Part shown: in pieces, positions 39,463 through 47,577 of the stretch | Numbering within the stretch: position 1 is the stretch's first letter | Layout: every line of letters starts with the position of its first letter | Sequence record: OZ346228.1 | Direction: 5' to 3' (one strand) | Length of the DNA stretch: 64,000 nt | Origin: a phage | Notes under the pieces: model-generated | The model's input: only the letters and a program-made list of their open reading frames with translations | Told to the model about the DNA's origin: nothing | Databases searched by the model: none | Translations under genes and position numbers: made by a program

Positions 39463-40552
39463 TTAAAACTCCCAAATTTCTTCTTCAGCGTCGTTAACAG
39501 TTGTGTTGACGCGGTAGTCAGTGTTCGACATTTCTTGGTTCGCCGTCTGTTGTAATGAAGGTTTCATCCACACCTGCATAAACGGTAGCGGGTCCTTTGT
39601 TGGCGGCACAAAGTCTTTGTCGATGTCGTAGTAATCATAAATCGGTGAGCAGTTATAGTCAACCCACTCTTTAAGCAACGGTGAGTTAAGACCTATAATC
39701 GCTCTTCCTTCGCTGAAAATATAGTCACTCCAACCGTACTCTTTGGTTCGTACTTCATCAAGAATCTCTTTTAACTCCCCCTTTATCTCAAGGAAGCTTT
39801 TCTCCCATGCGGGATCATTAAGCAAGATATCAATGATGGCAAAATCACCTTTCGAATGTAGCATTTCGTCAAGCATGATTTTTTGAACAAGCTGCGCCAC
39901 CTGAACAAAGATACCCTGTTCAGCTACTGCGAAAGTGCATGCAAAACTTGCAATAAACTCAATACTTTCCAGAGCTAAAAGTGCAAAAAGCGCTCTAAGA
40001 ATGCATTTCCGCACAACATCTTCTTCAACACTAGAAGGATCCAGTCGGTATTTTGCACCAATAACCTCAAGCTCTTGCATGTATTTGACAATAACGCCAG
40101 ATCTGCTCAGAACGTTTTGGTTTTCCTGAATCTCTTCTATAATCTCACGGGCATTGGGGAGGCATTGTCTAACAATCTCTGAGTAAGTTAGTGCGTGAAG
40201 AACTTCAATCTCTGACTGTTTCATCAATAGAGTGAAAAGCTCACTATTAGTGATGAATGGTGAAAAGAGGCAGATGATCGATCTTGCCGCAACGCTATCA
40301 GCCTCCCATTGCCACATCAAGGTCTGCACCATCACGTCATAAGTTGACTTTGAGCATGTTACAAAATCTGAAATAGATTGCGACAAATCCACTTCATCCT
40401 CTGCCCAATCTTGCTCTTTTTGTTTTTTGTATAGTTCAAACAGTTGTGGATATTTTTTGTTGATAGAGTCGTACATACCCATTTGCTGTCCCAGAAACAG
40501 CGGATAGTCACCAGTTTTATGAGCGGTGTTCTCAGCATTAAATACAGCCATT
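39463..40552 (-). CDS. nrdB: ribonucleotide reductase class Ia small subunit (R2)
   Basis: Colinear with E. coli NrdB (LFLGQ, WAEDEVD, ALESIEFIASFACTFAVAE, DEMLHS, DYIFSEGRAIIGLN); start set at ATG after RBS agaggtag. Confidence 0.85.
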
Positions 40553-40565
40553 ATTCTACCTCTAA

Positions 40566-40586
40566 AATGGGGCCGAAGCCCCTTTA
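40566..40586 (-). terminator. intercistronic hairpin between nrdA and nrdB
   Basis: aaaggggcttcggccccatttt on the - strand. Confidence 0.4.
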
Positions 40587-40589
40587 AAA

Positions 40590-42905
40590 TTATAGTGCAC
40601 AGCTTTCGCAATACGGATCTTCAACTGAACTATCTGCAATCAAAGGATAGTTCTTTCTGGTTTCATCTTCAGCCTGTTTCTTGGCATGGAGTTCCTCTGC
40701 CAAGGAGTCACCAGCACCAACCCTAGAGTTTAAATAATACCATGTCTTCATCCCGAATTTAGTGGCACGGATAAGGTACCCTAGCTGCTCCTTCATTGAA
40801 ATTTTACCATCTTTCAACTTGGTGTAGTCTATGTATAAATCCGCGCTGATTGCCTGACCTGTGAATTTTTGAATCACAGCATACATATCGATCATGTCGT
40901 TAGTATCAACGTCCCAAGCCGAAGTGTAATACTCTTTCAACTCATCGTATTCAGGAACGATAAACAGCACCTGCCCTTGTGGCGACTTTTTAAAGATAAT
41001 GTGCTCACGGACAGGATAAACCCCGTTAGTGGTGTTTGTTGCCAGCGAAGAGCTTTCATTAGGCATATATGCTTCAAGAACGCTATTACGTAGCCCACCA
41101 TTTTCAATGATTTCTTTACGTAACCCTTCCCAATCCTGTTTAAGAGAAGGATCTTTCACCACACTATCGACCTCTTTGTTATAAGTGTCGATTGGTAACC
41201 AACCTTCTGGATATTTTGTTTTATACATCCACTCGCAGACACCACGCTCTTTTGCCAACCGTAAACTTGCCTTATGCAAGCTGTAGCTGTGAAGTTCTGC
41301 AAGATCGTGAACAAGCTGTTTACTTTCAGGAGATCCGTAAGTAACCTTGTGGCTGGCAATAAAATGTGCAACATTGGTAAGGCCAACCCCGATGGATCTG
41401 CGTTTTTTAACAGTACTCTCCATGTTTTCATACGGATATGCCATGATTTCCATAACATTGTCAATCATAAGCACCGTGTAGTATGCAACATCCTCATACT
41501 CCTCTGGGGTAACCCTTCCAGCTACAAGAGATGACAGGAAGCACAATGCAACCTCACCATCATCAACATCGTACTTGAAGATATTACGCATATCTGAATA
41601 GCCTTTTGTCGGGAGGGCTATTTCTGCACACAGGTTGCTTGAATAGATCACATCTTTAAAAGGTGTATGTCTATTCATCTCATCTGTCCAGTATACGTAC
41701 AGCCTTCCCACCTCAGTACGCTGCGTGATCAGCTCAACAGCAAGATCTCTAGCCCGGATCCATGTCTTAGGAATACTGTCATCTTTAGCAATACGCTCAA
41801 CCTCTGCATCGAACTCCTCCATAGACATGGTGAAGATACCCTCATACAGTTGAGGAGCGTGCTTATAAGAAACAAGCATCCAATCTAAATTCTTAGCCAC
41901 ACGGTTGATAAACGACCTATTAATACCGATGGAGTAGTCCATGGTGTTGATTCTTTTTGAAGCAACAGTCATAGGGTTTCTCAAACGGATTAGCTCATCA
42001 ATCTGCGGGTCCAGTGCAAGGAATGATACTGTTGCAGAACCGCCACGTGATTGTTGTCTGTTCTCCTTAACACCAGCATCAATACCTCGATAATATGGAA
42101 TCTTACCCATGTGTTTAATAGTGTTACCGCGAACACCATCACCTGCAGATCTTGATGATAAATAGTAGCCGATACCTGCTTGGTTAACCGTCATTGTGTA
42201 CGCAACTTCACGTGCCACACCAATAGATTTTGCTGTATCGTCAGCTTTTATTACACAACAAGATGCATACCCTGTCTTACCTGTGCGCAGCCCGTTTAAG
42301 TACGGTGTCGGGGCATTGATCTTTAAGTCGGACAGATAAGTGTATAATTTTACAACATCGTTGATACGACGTTCTTTCGGCATATTCTTCATGACAGCCA
42401 TTGCTATCCCCATAAACATCATCTGGGGAGATTCAAACAAGGTGTCTTTAAGAGTATCCTTGATCCCGTATTTGTCGCGAAACTGTTTAAGGACTGCATA
42501 GCCATAGCCGAGATCTTTACTGTGGTCAATAACAGCGTCTAAAGTGTTTAGCTCGGTAAAGCTATATCCCATATCCTCCCAATACCCTTTCTCAACCATG
42601 TCGTTGTAAAATGATGGTAAGGAAGGGATCTTTGTAAACCCTCCAAAAGCCTCTTTATAAATCTGACCAATAAGAACACGACCAGCCATACGGGAATGTG
42701 CTTCGTCTTTACGGCTAACACAGGAGTCTATGATAGCTTGGTTAACTTCTTTGGTTGTACATCCATCATACAGTCGTTTGTATGCATCCAGTGCAATATG
42801 TGACCAATTGCCGTTACCGTCGTCACCGAAAATAGCTGCCTTATTTAAACGTTCTGGATCGAATGCCACTTCACATCCGTTGCTTTTAATTACCTTGGTG
42901 ATCAA
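40590..42905 (-). CDS. nrdA: ribonucleotide reductase class Ia large subunit (R1) with ATP-cone
   Basis: N-terminal ATP-cone (VIKSNGCEVAFDPERL), 771 aa, C-terminal Cys pair ...CESCAL. Confidence 0.85.
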   Translation of the reverse strand: MITKVIKSNGCEVAFDPERLNKAAIFGDDGNGNWSHIALDAYKRLYDGCTTKEVNQAIIDSCVSRKDEAHSRMAGRVLIGQIYKEAFGGFTKIPSLPSFYNDMVEKGYWEDMGYSFTELNTLDAVIDHSKDLGYGYAVLKQFRDKYGIKDTLKDTLFESPQMMFMGIAMAVMKNMPKERRINDVVKLYTYLSDLKINAPTPYLNGLRTGKTGYASCCVIKADDTAKSIGVAREVAYTMTVNQAGIGYYLSSRSAGDGVRGNTIKHMGKIPYYRGIDAGVKENRQQSRGGSATVSFLALDPQIDELIRLRNPMTVASKRINTMDYSIGINRSFINRVAKNLDWMLVSYKHAPQLYEGIFTMSMEEFDAEVERIAKDDSIPKTWIRARDLAVELITQRTEVGRLYVYWTDEMNRHTPFKDVIYSSNLCAEIALPTKGYSDMRNIFKYDVDDGEVALCFLSSLVAGRVTPEEYEDVAYYTVLMIDNVMEIMAYPYENMESTVKKRRSIGVGLTNVAHFIASHKVTYGSPESKQLVHDLAELHSYSLHKASLRLAKERGVCEWMYKTKYPEGWLPIDTYNKEVDSVVKDPSLKQDWEGLRKEIIENGGLRNSVLEAYMPNESSSLATNTTNGVYPVREHIIFKKSPQGQVLFIVPEYDELKEYYTSAWDVDTNDMIDMYAVIQKFTGQAISADLYIDYTKLKDGKISMKEQLGYLIRATKFGMKTWYYLNSRVGAGDSLAEELHAKKQAEDETRKNYPLIADSSVEDPYCESCAL

Positions 42906-43210
42906 TTTGCTTCCTCCACTTCATCAACGTATTTATCAAGGCAGGTATCAGTATCTTGCTGGATAAAGGTATCCTCTTCTACAGAGATATTTATAATTTT
43001 GCCTGTATACTCGTCATAATAAACATCATCATACATTTTAATATCGTTTGTCAGGCCGTTGAACCAAAGCCAACCAACATACTCTGACCGACTTGCAAAA
43101 CCAAGATCCTTCCACTTGGAGTTATGACTCATCTTCACCACCTTAGCTTTCAATACCGAATAATTTTTCCAGGCGATGCAGATCTTCAAAATTGAAAGGT
43201 TCATCAACAA
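42902..43210 (-). CDS. hypothetical protein
   Basis: ORF. Confidence 0.45.
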   Translation of the reverse strand: MLMNLSILKICIAWKNYSVLKAKVVKMSHNSKWKDLGFASRSEYVGWLWFNGLTNDIKMYDDVYYDEYTGKIINISVEEDTFIQQDTDTCLDKYVDEVEEAN

Positions 43211-43643
43211 TATGAATATCTTCAGCCTTTTCAGATTGTTTTGTATACTTTCTTACATTAACACGATCCTCTACAGGAATATCATACGGAAGATCTTGAA
43301 CAAGCATTGCCTCACCAGGTGCTTTATCCACATCTAAAATATCTACACCGTTATACATTTGCGGGTATCTAAAGTCTGCACGCATGACACCAGCAAATAC
43401 ATCTGCCTTTCGATAATGTGTTGGCTTATTTTTGCATCGAACGTTTTTTCCACGAAGAACATCAATACTTTTTAAATCAAACCCTACGGCAAAGAGTGCA
43501 GCTCGGAGACCGTTTCGTGTGCGAACGTTAAACCCGGGAACGGTAGATAGGAAATCCAAAGTAACTGAAATAAATGTCTTTTTAGGAATCATAACATTAC
43601 TCATATCTGTCTCCATTTCTGGCTCACCAACAAAGTGAGCCAT
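43143..43643 (-). CDS. hypothetical protein
   Basis: 166 aa ORF. Confidence 0.5.
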   Translation of the reverse strand: MAHFVGEPEMETDMSNVMIPKKTFISVTLDFLSTVPGFNVRTRNGLRAALFAVGFDLKSIDVLRGKNVRCKNKPTHYRKADVFAGVMRADFRYPQMYNGVDILDVDKAPGEAMLVQDLPYDIPVEDRVNVRKYTKQSEKAEDIHIVDEPFNFEDLHRLEKLFGIES

Positions 43644-43702: not shown

Positions 43703-44686
43703 TTAACCTTTCACGAAGTGGTTATTAAGCAGTTGTCTGTGCTGAACCCACCCACAAAAGTTGGCAGACCAGAATTTACCATCACGGTCTTGATGGGTTA
43801 CACCTTCCTGCCAAGTACTGATGTCTTGTGTGATTTCACATGAAGACAGGTAGTAGTTTAAACGTTCCATTGCGTTATCGTGATCCATAGGTGTTGCCTG
43901 GTGCTCGTAAGGGCTTGCATGAATACGATCCCCACCAATCAATTTTTTAGCCACACTGTCTGCCTTTTCAAACGTGCTGTCAATATTTCGATAAGATACT
44001 TGTGCACAGCAACTAGCACTGATAGACAGAGCTTCTTTAGTATCGAGAATGCAGAGCTTTCCTTCTGTGTCACGTACAGCGTAGTTAAACTCCCCGTCCA
44101 AATAAACGTGCTCTACATATGGAGTGTGCCATTGACCCGGTTTAAGGATTTCAGGAGTGCTATTCACAAGAGCCTCCCACATACAATTAGCTAACATCTG
44201 AATCGTAGGATCCGCATCGTGCCAGCAACGGAGGTGGAAAAAATTATTCCACTCGGTGCTTGTTACAACTGTTTTCATGCGCTGAAAAGGCTCCACTAAG
44301 CGGTTACATACTTGCTTATGGTAACCAGCAAGGGCAAACTTCTCTGCATGCCAAGCGGCGTTTTTTGCAGCTTCTTTCCAAAACTCTTCCGGAGTTAGCT
44401 CCATATCAGTGTACTCTACACGGATCTTTTGATCGTGTTCCCCACCATCTTCCATTCCTCGCTTATTTACACCGAAGCGAACTGGCATTGCCGGATTCTC
44501 CACAATCTGTTGCAGCATCTTTCCGACAGGCACTGCACGGGAAGACATGGCGTTTCGGCTGAACACTCGGTGCGTCATAAGCTCTGAGTGAATAATTCGA
44601 GGATACTCTAGCTCAAAAGTGGTGATGCGCTTACCTTTCTCGGAAATGCTGTCAGCAATGATCTTTGCAGTGCACAGTTTTAGCAT
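43703..44686 (-). CDS. thyX: ThyX-like (flavin-dependent thymidylate synthase family) protein with variant signature
   Basis: THRVFSRNAMSSRA parallels the ThyX signature RHRxxSxNExSxR with T in place of the first R; 327 aa, longer than typical ThyX. Confidence 0.6.
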   Translation of the reverse strand: MLKLCTAKIIADSISEKGKRITTFELEYPRIIHSELMTHRVFSRNAMSSRAVPVGKMLQQIVENPAMPVRFGVNKRGMEDGGEHDQKIRVEYTDMELTPEEFWKEAAKNAAWHAEKFALAGYHKQVCNRLVEPFQRMKTVVTSTEWNNFFHLRCWHDADPTIQMLANCMWEALVNSTPEILKPGQWHTPYVEHVYLDGEFNYAVRDTEGKLCILDTKEALSISASCCAQVSYRNIDSTFEKADSVAKKLIGGDRIHASPYEHQATPMDHDNAMERLNYYLSSCEITQDISTWQEGVTHQDRDGKFWSANFCGWVQHRQLLNNHFVKG

Positions 44687-44887: not shown

Positions 44888-45481
44888 TCAAATACCTTCT
44901 AAAAACTTTCCTATTTTATACCAGCTATTAGCGGTATAGTCAACACTGACCTTTAACTCCTCAAATTGCTCATAAGGCGTATCTTTTAGGATTTTAATAA
45001 CTTCAGGGCGTGAAGCGAATTGGTTCAGGTATTCATGCCTGTCGTCAATTATAACATCTACAGCCACATTTCCCTTGAAATGCGTGGCGTAGAAGCCGTG
45101 ACCCTGGGTGTGATCGTCCAGATCCATAAAATCACTAGTCCAACGCTTTAAGAACCTTGATTTAGATGCAAGGTGACCTTTCTTGCATACCGAGATAAAT
45201 GCAAGCTTGTGACCACGAGCCACCAAATCTTTCATAACCTCAATAGCCCCCTCTTCAGGCTTAAGAAAGTCGTAGAGGAACGGGTCACTCCAGAAATCAA
45301 AAGGCCCTATGATGTTTTCTTTGGGGCGATCAGGCCAATACTTTGACAGATCGTAATACATTAACCCATTAGAAGGTTTAGTGACTGTCTTACTGGCTGG
45401 ACCATATAAACGCTCCAACCACTCCCACCATGCTGTTCCTGAATCTACCAGTGTCAAATCTACATCAATACCGATTAACAT
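44888..45481 (-). CDS. HAD-superfamily phosphatase/5'-nucleotidase-like
   Basis: N-terminal DxDxT-type motif IGIDVDLTLVDS. Confidence 0.5.
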   Translation of the reverse strand: MLIGIDVDLTLVDSGTAWWEWLERLYGPASKTVTKPSNGLMYYDLSKYWPDRPKENIIGPFDFWSDPFLYDFLKPEEGAIEVMKDLVARGHKLAFISVCKKGHLASKSRFLKRWTSDFMDLDDHTQGHGFYATHFKGNVAVDVIIDDRHEYLNQFASRPEVIKILKDTPYEQFEELKVSVDYTANSWYKIGKFLEGI

Positions 45482-46092
45482 TCTTCTTGGGCCTCTTTAG
45501 CATCAATATACTTGCACACAATCTCCGATGCACATTCCCAAGGTGCACCTTCAGGGTTTACAACATCGAACTCAATTCCTTTTATTCCGTTCTTTTCCAG
45601 ACTTAGATAGGTTCTGGAATCATTTCCCCAGTCATATCCGACACGGTGAATACGGAACAACAACAGATCTCCACCTGTGCTGTACGCGTACTCGCTAAGG
45701 CATGCCAGCTCCTCTTTGAATCCACCATCGGAGTAAACAACAACCCCTTTACCTTTAGGGAAATCTTTCTTCAAAGATGCGACTGCGGCTTTACCGAAAG
45801 CATCTTCACCAAAGATAGGTTTAATCAGATTTTCACTACAATGGATCATCCATTCTCGCGGAGAAACATGCTTGCCGTCTATCATTAAGAAAGGGCAAGG
45901 CTCTTCTTTGTAGTGGCGGTCATAAAGTGCATTCCAGAGTTGAGGAGTTACACCAGCTGCCTTAATTGCCACACTGAAGAGCATCTCCTTAACCTCACGG
46001 TGGTGTGAGTTAGGAATAGCTTCCAACAAGAGATCTGCAATGTGATCCTTACCACTGCTGGGTGGGGCGTTAAGAACAATAATATCCATCAA
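45475..46092 (-). CDS. deoxynucleoside monophosphate kinase (T4 gp1-like)
   Basis: N-terminus MMDIIVLNAPPSSGKDHIADLL resembles T4 gp1 MKLIFLSGVKRSGKDTTADFI. Confidence 0.65.
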   Translation of the reverse strand: MMDIIVLNAPPSSGKDHIADLLLEAIPNSHHREVKEMLFSVAIKAAGVTPQLWNALYDRHYKEEPCPFLMIDGKHVSPREWMIHCSENLIKPIFGEDAFGKAAVASLKKDFPKGKGVVVYSDGGFKEELACLSEYAYSTGGDLLLFRIHRVGYDWGNDSRTYLSLEKNGIKGIEFDVVNPEGAPWECASEIVCKYIDAKEAQEEC

Positions 46093-46307: not shown

Positions 46308-46766
46308 TTAGAAGTTTGTTTTTACACGTCCCTTTTCATCAACCTCGTTGTTGGCTAGAAGCGTTACAAAGTCTGTGAAACGGACATGAAGAACTCTTTT
46401 CTTATCAAGGTATCCTAAAGCCACCCCTGAGAAATTTAGCATCAAAGGGGCTAAAGAAGCTCTGGCACTGAAATGCTGTTGTTCTACCCTTCCAACACCC
46501 TTAGTGTAGGATGGGTTAAGATTGTAAGTTCTGAATCCCAGTTTTGTTGGAGCTTTAGAATTAAAAACAACTTTATAGCGTTTCTTACTCAACTTATGCT
46601 CCAGGATAAGCATTCCCTTATCACCCTTGATAAGTTGAAAATCTGTAAAGTGCTCTTTTAATACGAAAGGTAGTGCCAGTCCCATCGCCTGCCCCCTTTG
46701 TACCGCTGTCTCACCAAAAGCTTTTGCATCAGTAAGTTCTTTGGTCAAGTCTATGCTTTTGATCAT
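46308..46766 (-). CDS. hypothetical protein
   Basis: ORF. Confidence 0.45.
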   Translation of the reverse strand: MIKSIDLTKELTDAKAFGETAVQRGQAMGLALPFVLKEHFTDFQLIKGDKGMLILEHKLSKKRYKVVFNSKAPTKLGFRTYNLNPSYTKGVGRVEQQHFSARASLAPLMLNFSGVALGYLDKKRVLHVRFTDFVTLLANNEVDEKGRVKTNF

Positions 46767-47577
46767 ACCTAGTCTCCAAAATGTATTGTAGTTCTTTCTT
46801 ACCTATACTCTTCATTCCGGCAGTCTTACCTGCTTCTTCTTGAAAAGAAGAATAGCATTCAGCAAACACTCTGTCAACACCGTCAACTAAAGATTTTATG
46901 AAATATGTTGATTCTTCAGATTTTGGGTCATCCTCCCCCAATACTTTTCCAGCATTATACCCAACACGTCTTACACAGAAGTCGTAGTCATCTGGAGTGC
47001 TAAAAGAAAATAACTTATTCTCCCCAATCTCTACAGGATCCCTGTTGCACGCCTTTTTCTCCCAAATTTGGAAAACACACGGCACGTCATAAGGTTTGCC
47101 ATTAAGTAGAAACGAGTTCTTAGGGCACCTTTCACTGTAGACAAGGTGCATCGACATGTCCAGTTTGTTTGCAAAAAATATTTTTTCAAATGTCCGTGGC
47201 AAGATGAAGGCTATAGCCCCTCCAAGCTCTAGCAATGATGCACAATGGTTAAAGAATTTGCAAGCTAAAGATGAATTCTTGCCAAATGGTGGGTTACCTA
47301 TGAAGACATCTGCCTTGGGATGCACCTCCAAGAAGTTTGCCTGAATGCACGGTGTTGGTCCTTCAAATTCAGGATCTGGTACTAGATCGTAAGACAGTAT
47401 CTCTGAAAATAGTTTTGAAAAAGAACCCCTTCCAGCAGAAGGCTCAACGTATGCACAATTTCCATACTTATCTTTTACTTTACCAACAAGATATTCTGCA
47501 TACTCAGGGTTTGTGTAATATTTGTCGTTGGACTCTTTCTTGCTCAAAGTGCCTCCAAAAGGAAAAGGGAGGCGCAA
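46729..47577 (-). CDS. DNA methyltransferase (amino-MTase, NPPF motif)
   Basis: Motif I-like EPSAGRGSF and motif IV GNPPFG. Confidence 0.7.
   Translation of the reverse strand: MRLPFPFGGTLSKKESNDKYYTNPEYAEYLVGKVKDKYGNCAYVEPSAGRGSFSKLFSEILSYDLVPDPEFEGPTPCIQANFLEVHPKADVFIGNPPFGKNSSLACKFFNHCASLLELGGAIAFILPRTFEKIFFANKLDMSMHLVYSERCPKNSFLLNGKPYDVPCVFQIWEKKACNRDPVEIGENKLFSFSTPDDYDFCVRRVGYNAGKVLGEDDPKSEESTYFIKSLVDGVDRVFAECYSSFQEEAGKTAGMKSIGKKELQYILETRYDQKHRLDQRTY

Follow-up and report, generated by a model that had tools for sequence, protein, structure and literature searches.

The gene at positions 43703..44686 on the minus strand of a 64,000-nucleotide stretch of phage DNA (sequence record OZ346228.1; hereafter, the window) encodes a 327-amino-acid (aa) protein that is probably, at odds that we put at about 0.78, a functional flavin-dependent thymidylate synthase (ThyX) of a distinct "long" subfamily, supplying deoxythymidine monophosphate (dTMP) for phage replication. 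Judging from comparison of its relatives, the two features that set the protein apart, namely THR in place of RHR in the signature motif and the extra length, are hallmarks of a large, conserved subfamily separate from canonical ThyX and, as such, are not signs of a new substrate. The annotation as such is not new, given that identical genes in GenBank are named (flavin adenine dinucleotide (FAD)-dependent) thymidylate synthase; new, as far as the literature searched shows, are the non-collinear order of elements in this subfamily, the three residues missing from its flavin site and its wide spread.

Signature motif and assignment to the ThyX fold

The open reading frame (ORF) opens with an ATG and closes with a TAA stop at 43703-43705; it is preceded, at 8 nt, by the ribosome-binding site AGGAGA, and the start overlaps the stop of a preceding 66-aa ORF, as TAATG. 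Residues 38-50 read THRVFSRNAMSSR, which corresponds to the ThyX signature RHRxxSxxxxSxR except that Thr replaces the first Arg; all the remaining motif positions are present. An earlier note on this DNA had remarked on both the THR and the extended length, and both observations hold: the former is borne out by the translation, and the length of 327 aa compares with 216-270 residues in solved ThyX chains. When the strict RHRX7S signature (Myllykallio 2002, quoted in PMC2826268) is applied, the protein departs from it at the first Arg, a position occupied by Thr in 96% of the family.

The Pfam Thy1 model (PF02511) recognized residues 23-178 with 37.4 bits, above its cutoff of 24.8, across profile positions 60-190 of 191 only. 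A profile of the long-ThyX family reached only an E-value of about 1 against PDB sequences. Sequence search alone was thus unable to map residues, and a profile-profile comparison was needed, for which a canonical profile was built from 119 relatives of Thermotoga maritima (Tm) ThyX, with the reference sequence checked against PDB 1kq4, and compared with the family profile using hhalign. The AlphaFold2 (AF2) model of the protein (pLDDT 85.6, pTM 0.86) was matched by Foldseek to ThyX structures with a probability of 1.0, and the predicted fold is that of ThyX. Sequential structure aligners covered no more than about two-thirds of every ThyX target, as a consequence of the non-collinear module order described below. 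The ThyX assignment is right at the level of the fold and weak at the level of the sequence.

Non-collinear order of elements and source of the extra length

In the hhalign comparison, residues 23-178 aligned with Tm 63-199 (probability 88, E 2.9e-6), and a separate, out-of-order match paired residues 221-263 with Tm 20-60 (probability 92, E 6e-7). When the C-terminal half alone served as the query, the match to Tm 20-60 had a probability of 95 and an E-value of 2e-8, and a search in the reverse direction, with the canonical N-terminus as the query, found residues 222-263 (probability 96, E 5e-9); across both directions, the values for the 221-263 match spanned probabilities of 92-96 and E-values from 6e-7 to 2e-9. 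The observed score of 55.2 for this match compares with a mean of 13.4 and a maximum of 24.1 in 100 column shuffles, a control in which only the query columns were used; an earlier version run with hhalign -M 50 was erratic (maximum 134) and was discarded as an artefact of match-state assignment. By these comparisons, homology with canonical ThyX is non-collinear.

The relocated module holds S231 (Tm S30), within the stretch CAQVSYR that aligns with Tm AARVSF, and H256-A-S258-P-Y-E261-H262 (Tm H53-E-T55-P-F-E58-H59), with S231 and H256 conserved in 100% of the family. The helix pair bearing these two residues is located about 40 residues past the end of the core, and the core itself follows directly on the first beta-hairpin. 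In the AF2 model, strand 6-15 hairpins straight into strand 20-29, which precedes the signature, and the two helices with the His loop occupy residues 216-263, after the last core helix. We infer that residues 221-263 take up the canonical place in three dimensions and that other residues stand in for R78 and R165 of Tm ThyX.

This arrangement, with the core preceding the N-terminal module, is the structural cause of the unusual length, the net excess of about 107 residues being made up of loop 64-98, beta-meander 179-215 and tail 264-327. In the AF2 model, the loop is mainly coil with short strands, and the strands of the meander run over residues 192-196, 199-205 and 211-214. For 179-215, hhalign produced no significant match to a canonical counterpart, and residues 179-225 alone matched nothing. 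The tail is possibly a vestigial second beta3-alpha3-'RHR' element: in the members of the family with short tails, the Tm alignment extends collinearly from 20 to 93, placing G-W-x-Q-Y-R over R-Q-W-F-R-H-R, with low per-column confidence. Searched alone with hhalign, tail 264-327 gave no significant match (WVQHR with Tm WFRHR, E 0.26), and self-comparison of the family profile yielded no internal repeat. Based on the 221-263 match and the low-confidence collinear extension, we hypothesize that the C-terminal half represents a second, shortened ThyX repeat that would have arisen by tandem duplication followed by complementary loss.

Active-site residues retained and replaced

Conservation was quantified in an alignment of 134 representatives drawn from a library clustered at 50% identity, in which conservation reaches at least 90% at about 40 positions. 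Position 38 is Thr in 128 of these representatives, Lys in 3 and Arg in 2, and Thr is found in all 47 closer homologues; a residue that is Thr in nearly all of the family is not a matter of chance or sequencing error. Across the signature, conservation amounts to 96% for T38, 99% for H39, 82% for R40, 92% for S43, 93% for N45, and 99% for both S48 and R50.

The residues that bind or activate deoxyuridine monophosphate (dUMP) are kept, with R30, S48, R50, R129 and R153 conserved at 97-100% (R129 99%, R153 100%), and N148 (99%) is kept as well. The roles of these residues are known from canonical enzymes (Tm S88, R90, R147 and R174, and R87 of the Mycobacterium tuberculosis (Mtb) enzyme; PMC6514825, PMC8316439, PMC3498832), with Tm R174 being the uracil-activating Arg (PMC8316439); R30 was equated with Mtb R87 and Helicobacter pylori (Hp) R66 from its -8 spacing, via the numbering in PMC6514825. 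The His that stacks on flavin and folate and its neighbors are retained too (S231, H256, S258, E261 and H262, plus N148; 96-100% conserved).

The flavin site differs, family-wide, at three positions: Tm R78 is replaced by T38 (96%), R165 by T144 (98%) and Y91 by A51 (99%). In canonical ThyX, R78 forms hydrogen bonds with isoalloxazine N1/C2=O, stabilizes FADH- and contacts dUMP (PMC6514825, PMC11940539, PMC3498832); R165 holds the FAD phosphate and ribityl from the adjacent subunit (PMC6514825); and Y91 is a lid over the reactive atoms and the proposed general acid, the mutants being 100- to 1000-fold slower (PMC11940539, PMC8316439). The distant members of the family, in Cellulophaga, Acinetobacter and Caulobacter phages, retain the whole residue pattern. 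The altered signature is thus one of three changes that go together at the flavin, and the nucleotide site, the uracil-activating Arg included, is intact.

Distribution of the long-ThyX family

A HMMER scan of 1.84 billion cluster representatives (50% identity) identified 5031 relatives at E <= 1e-3, 1987 of them at E <= 1e-30. Using tblastn, long ThyX was found in 1036 phage records; for comparison, the T. maritima ThyX query detected 2682 phage records at E <= 1e-3. The phage carriers include Vequintavirinae and their relatives, Vibrio phage ICP1, Pakpunavirus and other Pseudomonas phages, N4-like Gamaleyavirus, Caulobacter phages, and Cellulophaga and Flavobacterium phages. Genes of nucleotide metabolism are located close by in unrelated phage carriers: nrdB and nrdA one ORF away in Pakpunavirus K8, nrdA at about 3 kb in ICP1, a dCTP deaminase at about 2 kb in ECBP1, an adjoining deoxynucleoside monophosphate (dNMP) kinase in Caulobacter J4 and a ribonucleotide reductase nearby in Acinetobacter EAb13.

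Homologues of about 550-680 aa carry inteins with HNH or LAGLIDADG endonucleases (P0126, P0132, P0138, P0147, P0154, P0155, P0161, P0179, P0201, P0213, P0215, P0216, P0217, P0236, P0245 and P0253). In window numbering, the insertion points lie after H33, after residue 42, at S48/S49, just after R153 (P0236 and P0253) and directly after H256 (P0155 and P0213), which makes at least five independent sites, all within conserved motifs, three of them in or beside the signature and one in the relocated His motif. We take the targeting of at least five motif sites by inteins as a sign of the functional importance of long ThyX. The possibility that homologues of about 630 aa are tandem ThyX duplications was considered and rejected, given that the inteins account for their size.

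Separately, Xanthomonas phage phiXF1 (L007, 2989-3780) encodes a 263-aa distant member that has lost most of the signature residues, with AYR for THR, Q for R153 and F for H256, and that may be an inactivated copy.

When prokaryotes were scanned with a single genome for each species, 78 long-ThyX loci were detected, about 26 of which belong to Candidatus Eremiobacterota / Vulcanimicrobiota (for example, L053, OZ255842.1, 5992-6843, with about 25 other loci in L021-L065 and L083). Several are on complete chromosomes, among them OY969579.1, OY968762.1, OZ255842.1 and OZ255707.1. The 283-aa gene of these bacteria keeps the entire signature (MTHRVFSRNAASSRAIP, HWSPFEH and GNFTGWEQYR). A subset of the loci share a syntenic neighborhood that consists of methylmalonyl-CoA mutase, gltX, glmU, a major facilitator superfamily (MFS) transporter, msrA, long ThyX, an M48 peptidase, ribosomal protein L25 and phosphoribosyl pyrophosphate (PRPP) synthetase and contains no phage genes. 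In Eremiobacterota, long ThyX looks like the cell's own thymidylate synthase, as far as sequence and gene order indicate.

Source phage and genomic neighborhood

The window comes from an rV5-like myovirus of the genus Vequintavirus: across the 4.6 kb around the ThyX gene, its sequence is 100% identical to that of Escherichia phages HdK5, pangalan and CarlMeissner. This segment has matches in 123 phage records. The features of the gene and its surroundings are compiled in Table 1.

Table 1. Coordinates of the long ThyX gene, its elements and neighboring features in the window
Feature	Position	Strand	Remarks
Long-form ThyX gene	43703..44686	-	327 aa; equivalent to rV5 gp106
R30	44597..44599	-	Eight residues before the motif; 97% conserved; corresponds to dUMP-phosphate Arg Mtb R87 / Hp R66
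Signature T38-H39-R40-V-F-S43-R-N45-A-M-S48-S49-R50	44537..44575	-	Aligned with Tm R78-H79-R80...S83...N85...S88...R90
A51	44534..44536	-	Position of Tm Y91, the 'lid'/general-acid Tyr; 99% Ala in the family; hhalign
R129 (Tm R147), T142 (N163), T144 (R165), N148 (N169), L152-R153 (L173-R174)	44228..44302	-	hhalign mapping
Core ThyX region, residues 23-178	44153..44620	-	hhalign to Tm 63-199; sole region matched by Pfam Thy1 and TIGR02170
Loop 64-98 after the motif	44393..44497	-	Longer than in Tm ThyX; gapped hhalign region; G77 and M78 100% conserved
Linker and beta-meander 179-215	44042..44152	-	Invariant G-x-W-H187-x-P189-Y; H187 and P189 100% conserved
Relocated N-terminal module, residues 221-263	43898..44026	-	Corresponds to Tm 20-60; hhalign, both directions
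C-terminal tail 264-327	43706..43897	-	Variable insert and conserved N309-F-x-G-W313-x-Q315-H-R317; N309 95%, Q315 97%, R317 100%
Terminator-like hairpin	43701-43685	-	Directly after the ThyX stop; consensus scan only
Promoter-like site TTGACT-17-TATAAT	43673-43645	-	Ahead of the next ORF; consensus scan only
Class I ribonucleotide reductase beta and alpha subunits (nrdA, nrdB)	39463..42905	-	ORFs; annotation in JLBYU08 and CarlMeissner
NT5C-like haloacid dehalogenase (HAD) 5'(3')-deoxyribonucleotidase	44888..45481	-	Pfam NT5C 27.3 bits (cutoff 24.8); PHROG 420; same annotation in JLBYU08
dNMP kinase	45475..46092	-	PHROG 139, E 9.3e-45; JLBYU08 annotation
DNA methyltransferase	46729-47577	-	

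The dNMP kinase and HAD nucleotidase that the earlier note had placed beside the gene were recovered by the PHROG 139 and Pfam NT5C matches, and class I and class III ribonucleotide reductases with a glutaredoxin are encoded just downstream of the ThyX gene. The promoter-like site scores 11 of 12 against the sigma-70 pattern and falls in the 59 nt that separate ThyX from the next ORF; the annotations of phages HdK5 and EdH4 carry a 'terminator' feature in the matching region. Together, the hairpin and the promoter-like site suggest a transcription-unit boundary inside the nucleotide-metabolism cluster.

The 66-aa ORF that precedes ThyX showed no profile similarity to either ThyX type. The 166-aa ORF at 43143-43643(-) (PHROG 5557, function unassigned) is labelled 'putative thymidylate synthase' in phage JLBYU08; this label looks unfounded, given that no Pfam, PDB or profile likeness to either ThyX type was detected.

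Several database records of this region call for comment. About 20 GenBank entries, C5 and A112b (host C. jejuni) for example, bear the name 'Campylobacter phage' and share 99% identity with the E. coli rV5-like region, which points to coliphages in that dataset that were mislabelled or are contaminants. In phage vB_EcoM-ECP26, the same gene has been deposited as two adjacent 'thymidylate synthase' fragments, A0A4Y5TVX3 (245 aa) and A0A4Y5TVY4 (97 aa), both of which, as BFVD matches, are 96% identical to the window protein; the split is probably due to a frameshift or sequencing error. In the CarlMeissner genome, at least three N6-adenine and two C5-cytosine DNA methyltransferases are annotated, yet such phages are reported to be highly restriction-sensitive.

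Function of long ThyX and alternative explanations

If the protein follows canonical chemistry, it would convert dUMP, methylenetetrahydrofolate (CH2-H4folate) and NADPH to dTMP, which would feed phage DNA synthesis alongside the phage ribonucleotide reductases and dNMP kinase. The loss of these arginines and the tyrosine from the flavin site may be offset by residues that are invariant only in this family, namely H187, K124, Q315, R317 and G77-M78, and the arrangement as a whole may have been born of partial tandem duplication and subsequent complementary loss. ThyX-type enzymes yield tetrahydrofolate rather than dihydrofolate. The whole-genome annotation of the close relative CarlMeissner, in which many ORFs are hypothetical, lists no ThyA, dihydrofolate reductase (DHFR), dCMP deaminase or hypermodification genes, and the lack of an annotated DHFR fits a ThyX-type enzyme. 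The earlier note had suggested a canonical enzyme with a divergent motif as one option; thymidylate synthase is indeed the better supported function, but 'canonical' proved wrong for a non-collinear subfamily with the changes R78T, R165T and Y91A.

Several points weigh against assigning thymidylate synthesis to this gene. The TIGR02170 equivalog model scored 40.0 bits, short of its cutoff of 87.9, and aligned over profile positions 60-207 only, and phmmer with the window protein against PDB sequences returned zero matches to solved ThyX chains. With the equivalents of R78, R165 and Y91 absent, canonical chemistry is not guaranteed. The literature searched contained no biochemical or genetic test of the long-ThyX subfamily, and nothing specific was found there on a description of the subfamily, complementation by phage ThyX or thymidylate synthesis in Eremiobacterota. 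Finally, the signs that the phage DNA is unmodified are indirect: Vequintavirinae are reported to be 'exceptionally susceptible' to restriction-modification (RM) systems, unlike T-even phages (BASEL study, PMC8594841), and XbaI cuts rV5 DNA (PMC3606486), both of which are compatible with a small modification such as 5-hydroxymethyluracil (5-hmU).

The other option in the earlier note was a ThyX-derived paralogue that modifies a pyrimidine otherwise, converting dUMP to 5-hydroxymethyl-dUMP or deoxycytidine monophosphate (dCMP) to 5-methyl-dCMP, and so supplies a non-canonical phage base. Given that Tm Y91, which is implicated in water departure and shielding, is Ala in 99% of the family and R78 is Thr, an altered outcome of methylene transfer is conceivable, and a nucleotidase and a dNMP kinase are also typical neighbors in modified-base pathways. 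We nevertheless regard such a role as distinctly unlikely: R153, the Arg that activates uracil, does not vary in the family, and the residues that bind the dUMP phosphate are retained; the phages are highly susceptible to restriction, as cited above; no accessory modification genes (ThyA-type hydroxymethylase, glycosyl- or amino-transferases, 5-hydroxymethyldeoxyuridine (5-hmdU) kinase or other kinase-type hypermodification genes) are annotated in CarlMeissner, which has DNA N6-adenine and C5-cytosine methyltransferases only; long ThyX adjoins dCTP deaminase or ribonucleotide reductase in phages that are not known for modified DNA; and a bacterial phylum, Eremiobacterota, carries the gene in a housekeeping context. 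The earlier note had proposed aligning the protein with ThyX structures to map the FAD and dUMP contacts and had held that a complete catalytic set together with unmodified virion DNA would speak against its suggestion. In the profile alignment, the dUMP contacts are present and the catalytic set is incomplete, with R78, R165 and Y91 replaced, and the virion DNA, judged from the literature on restriction only, appears to be free of modified pyrimidine.

A variant on cofactor handling would keep the fold and the dUMP substrate and change the rest, through weak binding of FAD or another flavin (flavin mononucleotide or free flavin), another reductant, or a dimer that, by means of the extra half-repeat, mimics the homotetramer of canonical ThyX, in which three subunits contribute to each active site. 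Both arginines of the FAD phosphate/ribityl contacts (R78 and R165) are Thr family-wide, the roughly 107 extra residues bring in the new invariant residues H187, P189, N309, Q315 and R317, and the C-terminal half looks like a second repeat cut short, but H39, R40, S43 and N45 of the FAD-binding motif are kept along with S258 (Tm T55), and the occurrence of Arg or Lys at position 38 in 5 of the 134 representatives suggests that the geometry of the pocket is not radically different; on balance, we consider this variant unlikely. That long ThyX is a catalytically dead or regulatory relic within the nucleotide-metabolism module seems highly improbable, notwithstanding the failed TIGR02170 cutoff, the loss of three canonical residues and the true degeneracy of the one distant member in phiXF1, in view of the strong conservation of some 40 positions in representatives from many phage families and bacteria, the inteins that target its motifs, the 5031 cluster representatives in the family and the synteny kept in Eremiobacterota.

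Thymidylate synthesis by a long ThyX thus remains the preferred reading. Going further, we tentatively propose a composite picture, which as a whole we hold to be possible rather than probable: long ThyX would be an old, separate lineage that originated by partial tandem duplication and complementary loss; its flavin pocket would work without R78, R165 and Y91, with R317 (of the vestigial 'RHR') or H187 substituting; the phylum Eremiobacterota and more than 1000 sequenced phages would have no other thymidylate synthase; and the flavin affinity, reductant, oligomeric state or inhibitor sensitivity of long ThyX may differ from those of canonical ThyX.

Implications and comparison with known systems

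For the phage itself, the conclusion is an ordinary one, that is, production of its own dTMP without the need for DHFR. ThyX is an antibacterial target with an unusual mechanism, and in the mechanisms now current R78, Y91 and the FAD-binding arginines are important. Long ThyX, which keeps the dUMP-activating machinery without R78, R165 and Y91 and with the His53 module moved, would be a natural test of which residues are truly required. Given that Pfam covers only residues 23-178 and the TIGRFAM equivalog fails, annotation pipelines name the family inconsistently, from 'hypothetical protein' to 'thymidylate synthase'.

Canonical ThyX, also known as flavin-dependent thymidylate synthase (FDTS), as represented by the enzymes of T. 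maritima (TM0449), M. tuberculosis, H. pylori and PBCV-1 (A674R), shares with the window protein the motif xHRxxSxxxxSxR, and Tm S30, H53, T55, E58, H59, H79, R80, S83, N85, S88, R90, R147, N169 and R174 all have conserved equivalents in it; the two types also keep the same genomic company (ribonucleotide reductase, dCTP deaminase and dNMP kinase). They differ in that the module Tm 20-60 precedes the core in canonical ThyX and follows it in long ThyX, and in that R78, R165 and Y91 of the former are T, T and A in the latter, which has about 107 extra residues.

The ThyX-like protein PolB of polyoxin biosynthesis, a C5-methylase of uridine monophosphate (UMP) and dUMP, is encoded in an antibiotic gene cluster, unlike the window ThyX, the context of which is phage dNTP supply. 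PolB (PDB 4p5a) is collinear with Tm ThyX over 6-208, and long ThyX is not. The T4 dCMP hydroxymethylase and SPO1-type dUMP hydroxymethylases are also phage-encoded, perform folate-dependent C5-pyrimidine chemistry and are found beside dNMP kinases (PMC7824862), but these enzymes have the ThyA fold, which is unrelated to the ThyX fold of the window protein, and the phages that encode them have restriction-resistant, modified DNA, in contrast to the highly RM-sensitive Vequintavirinae (PMC8594841).

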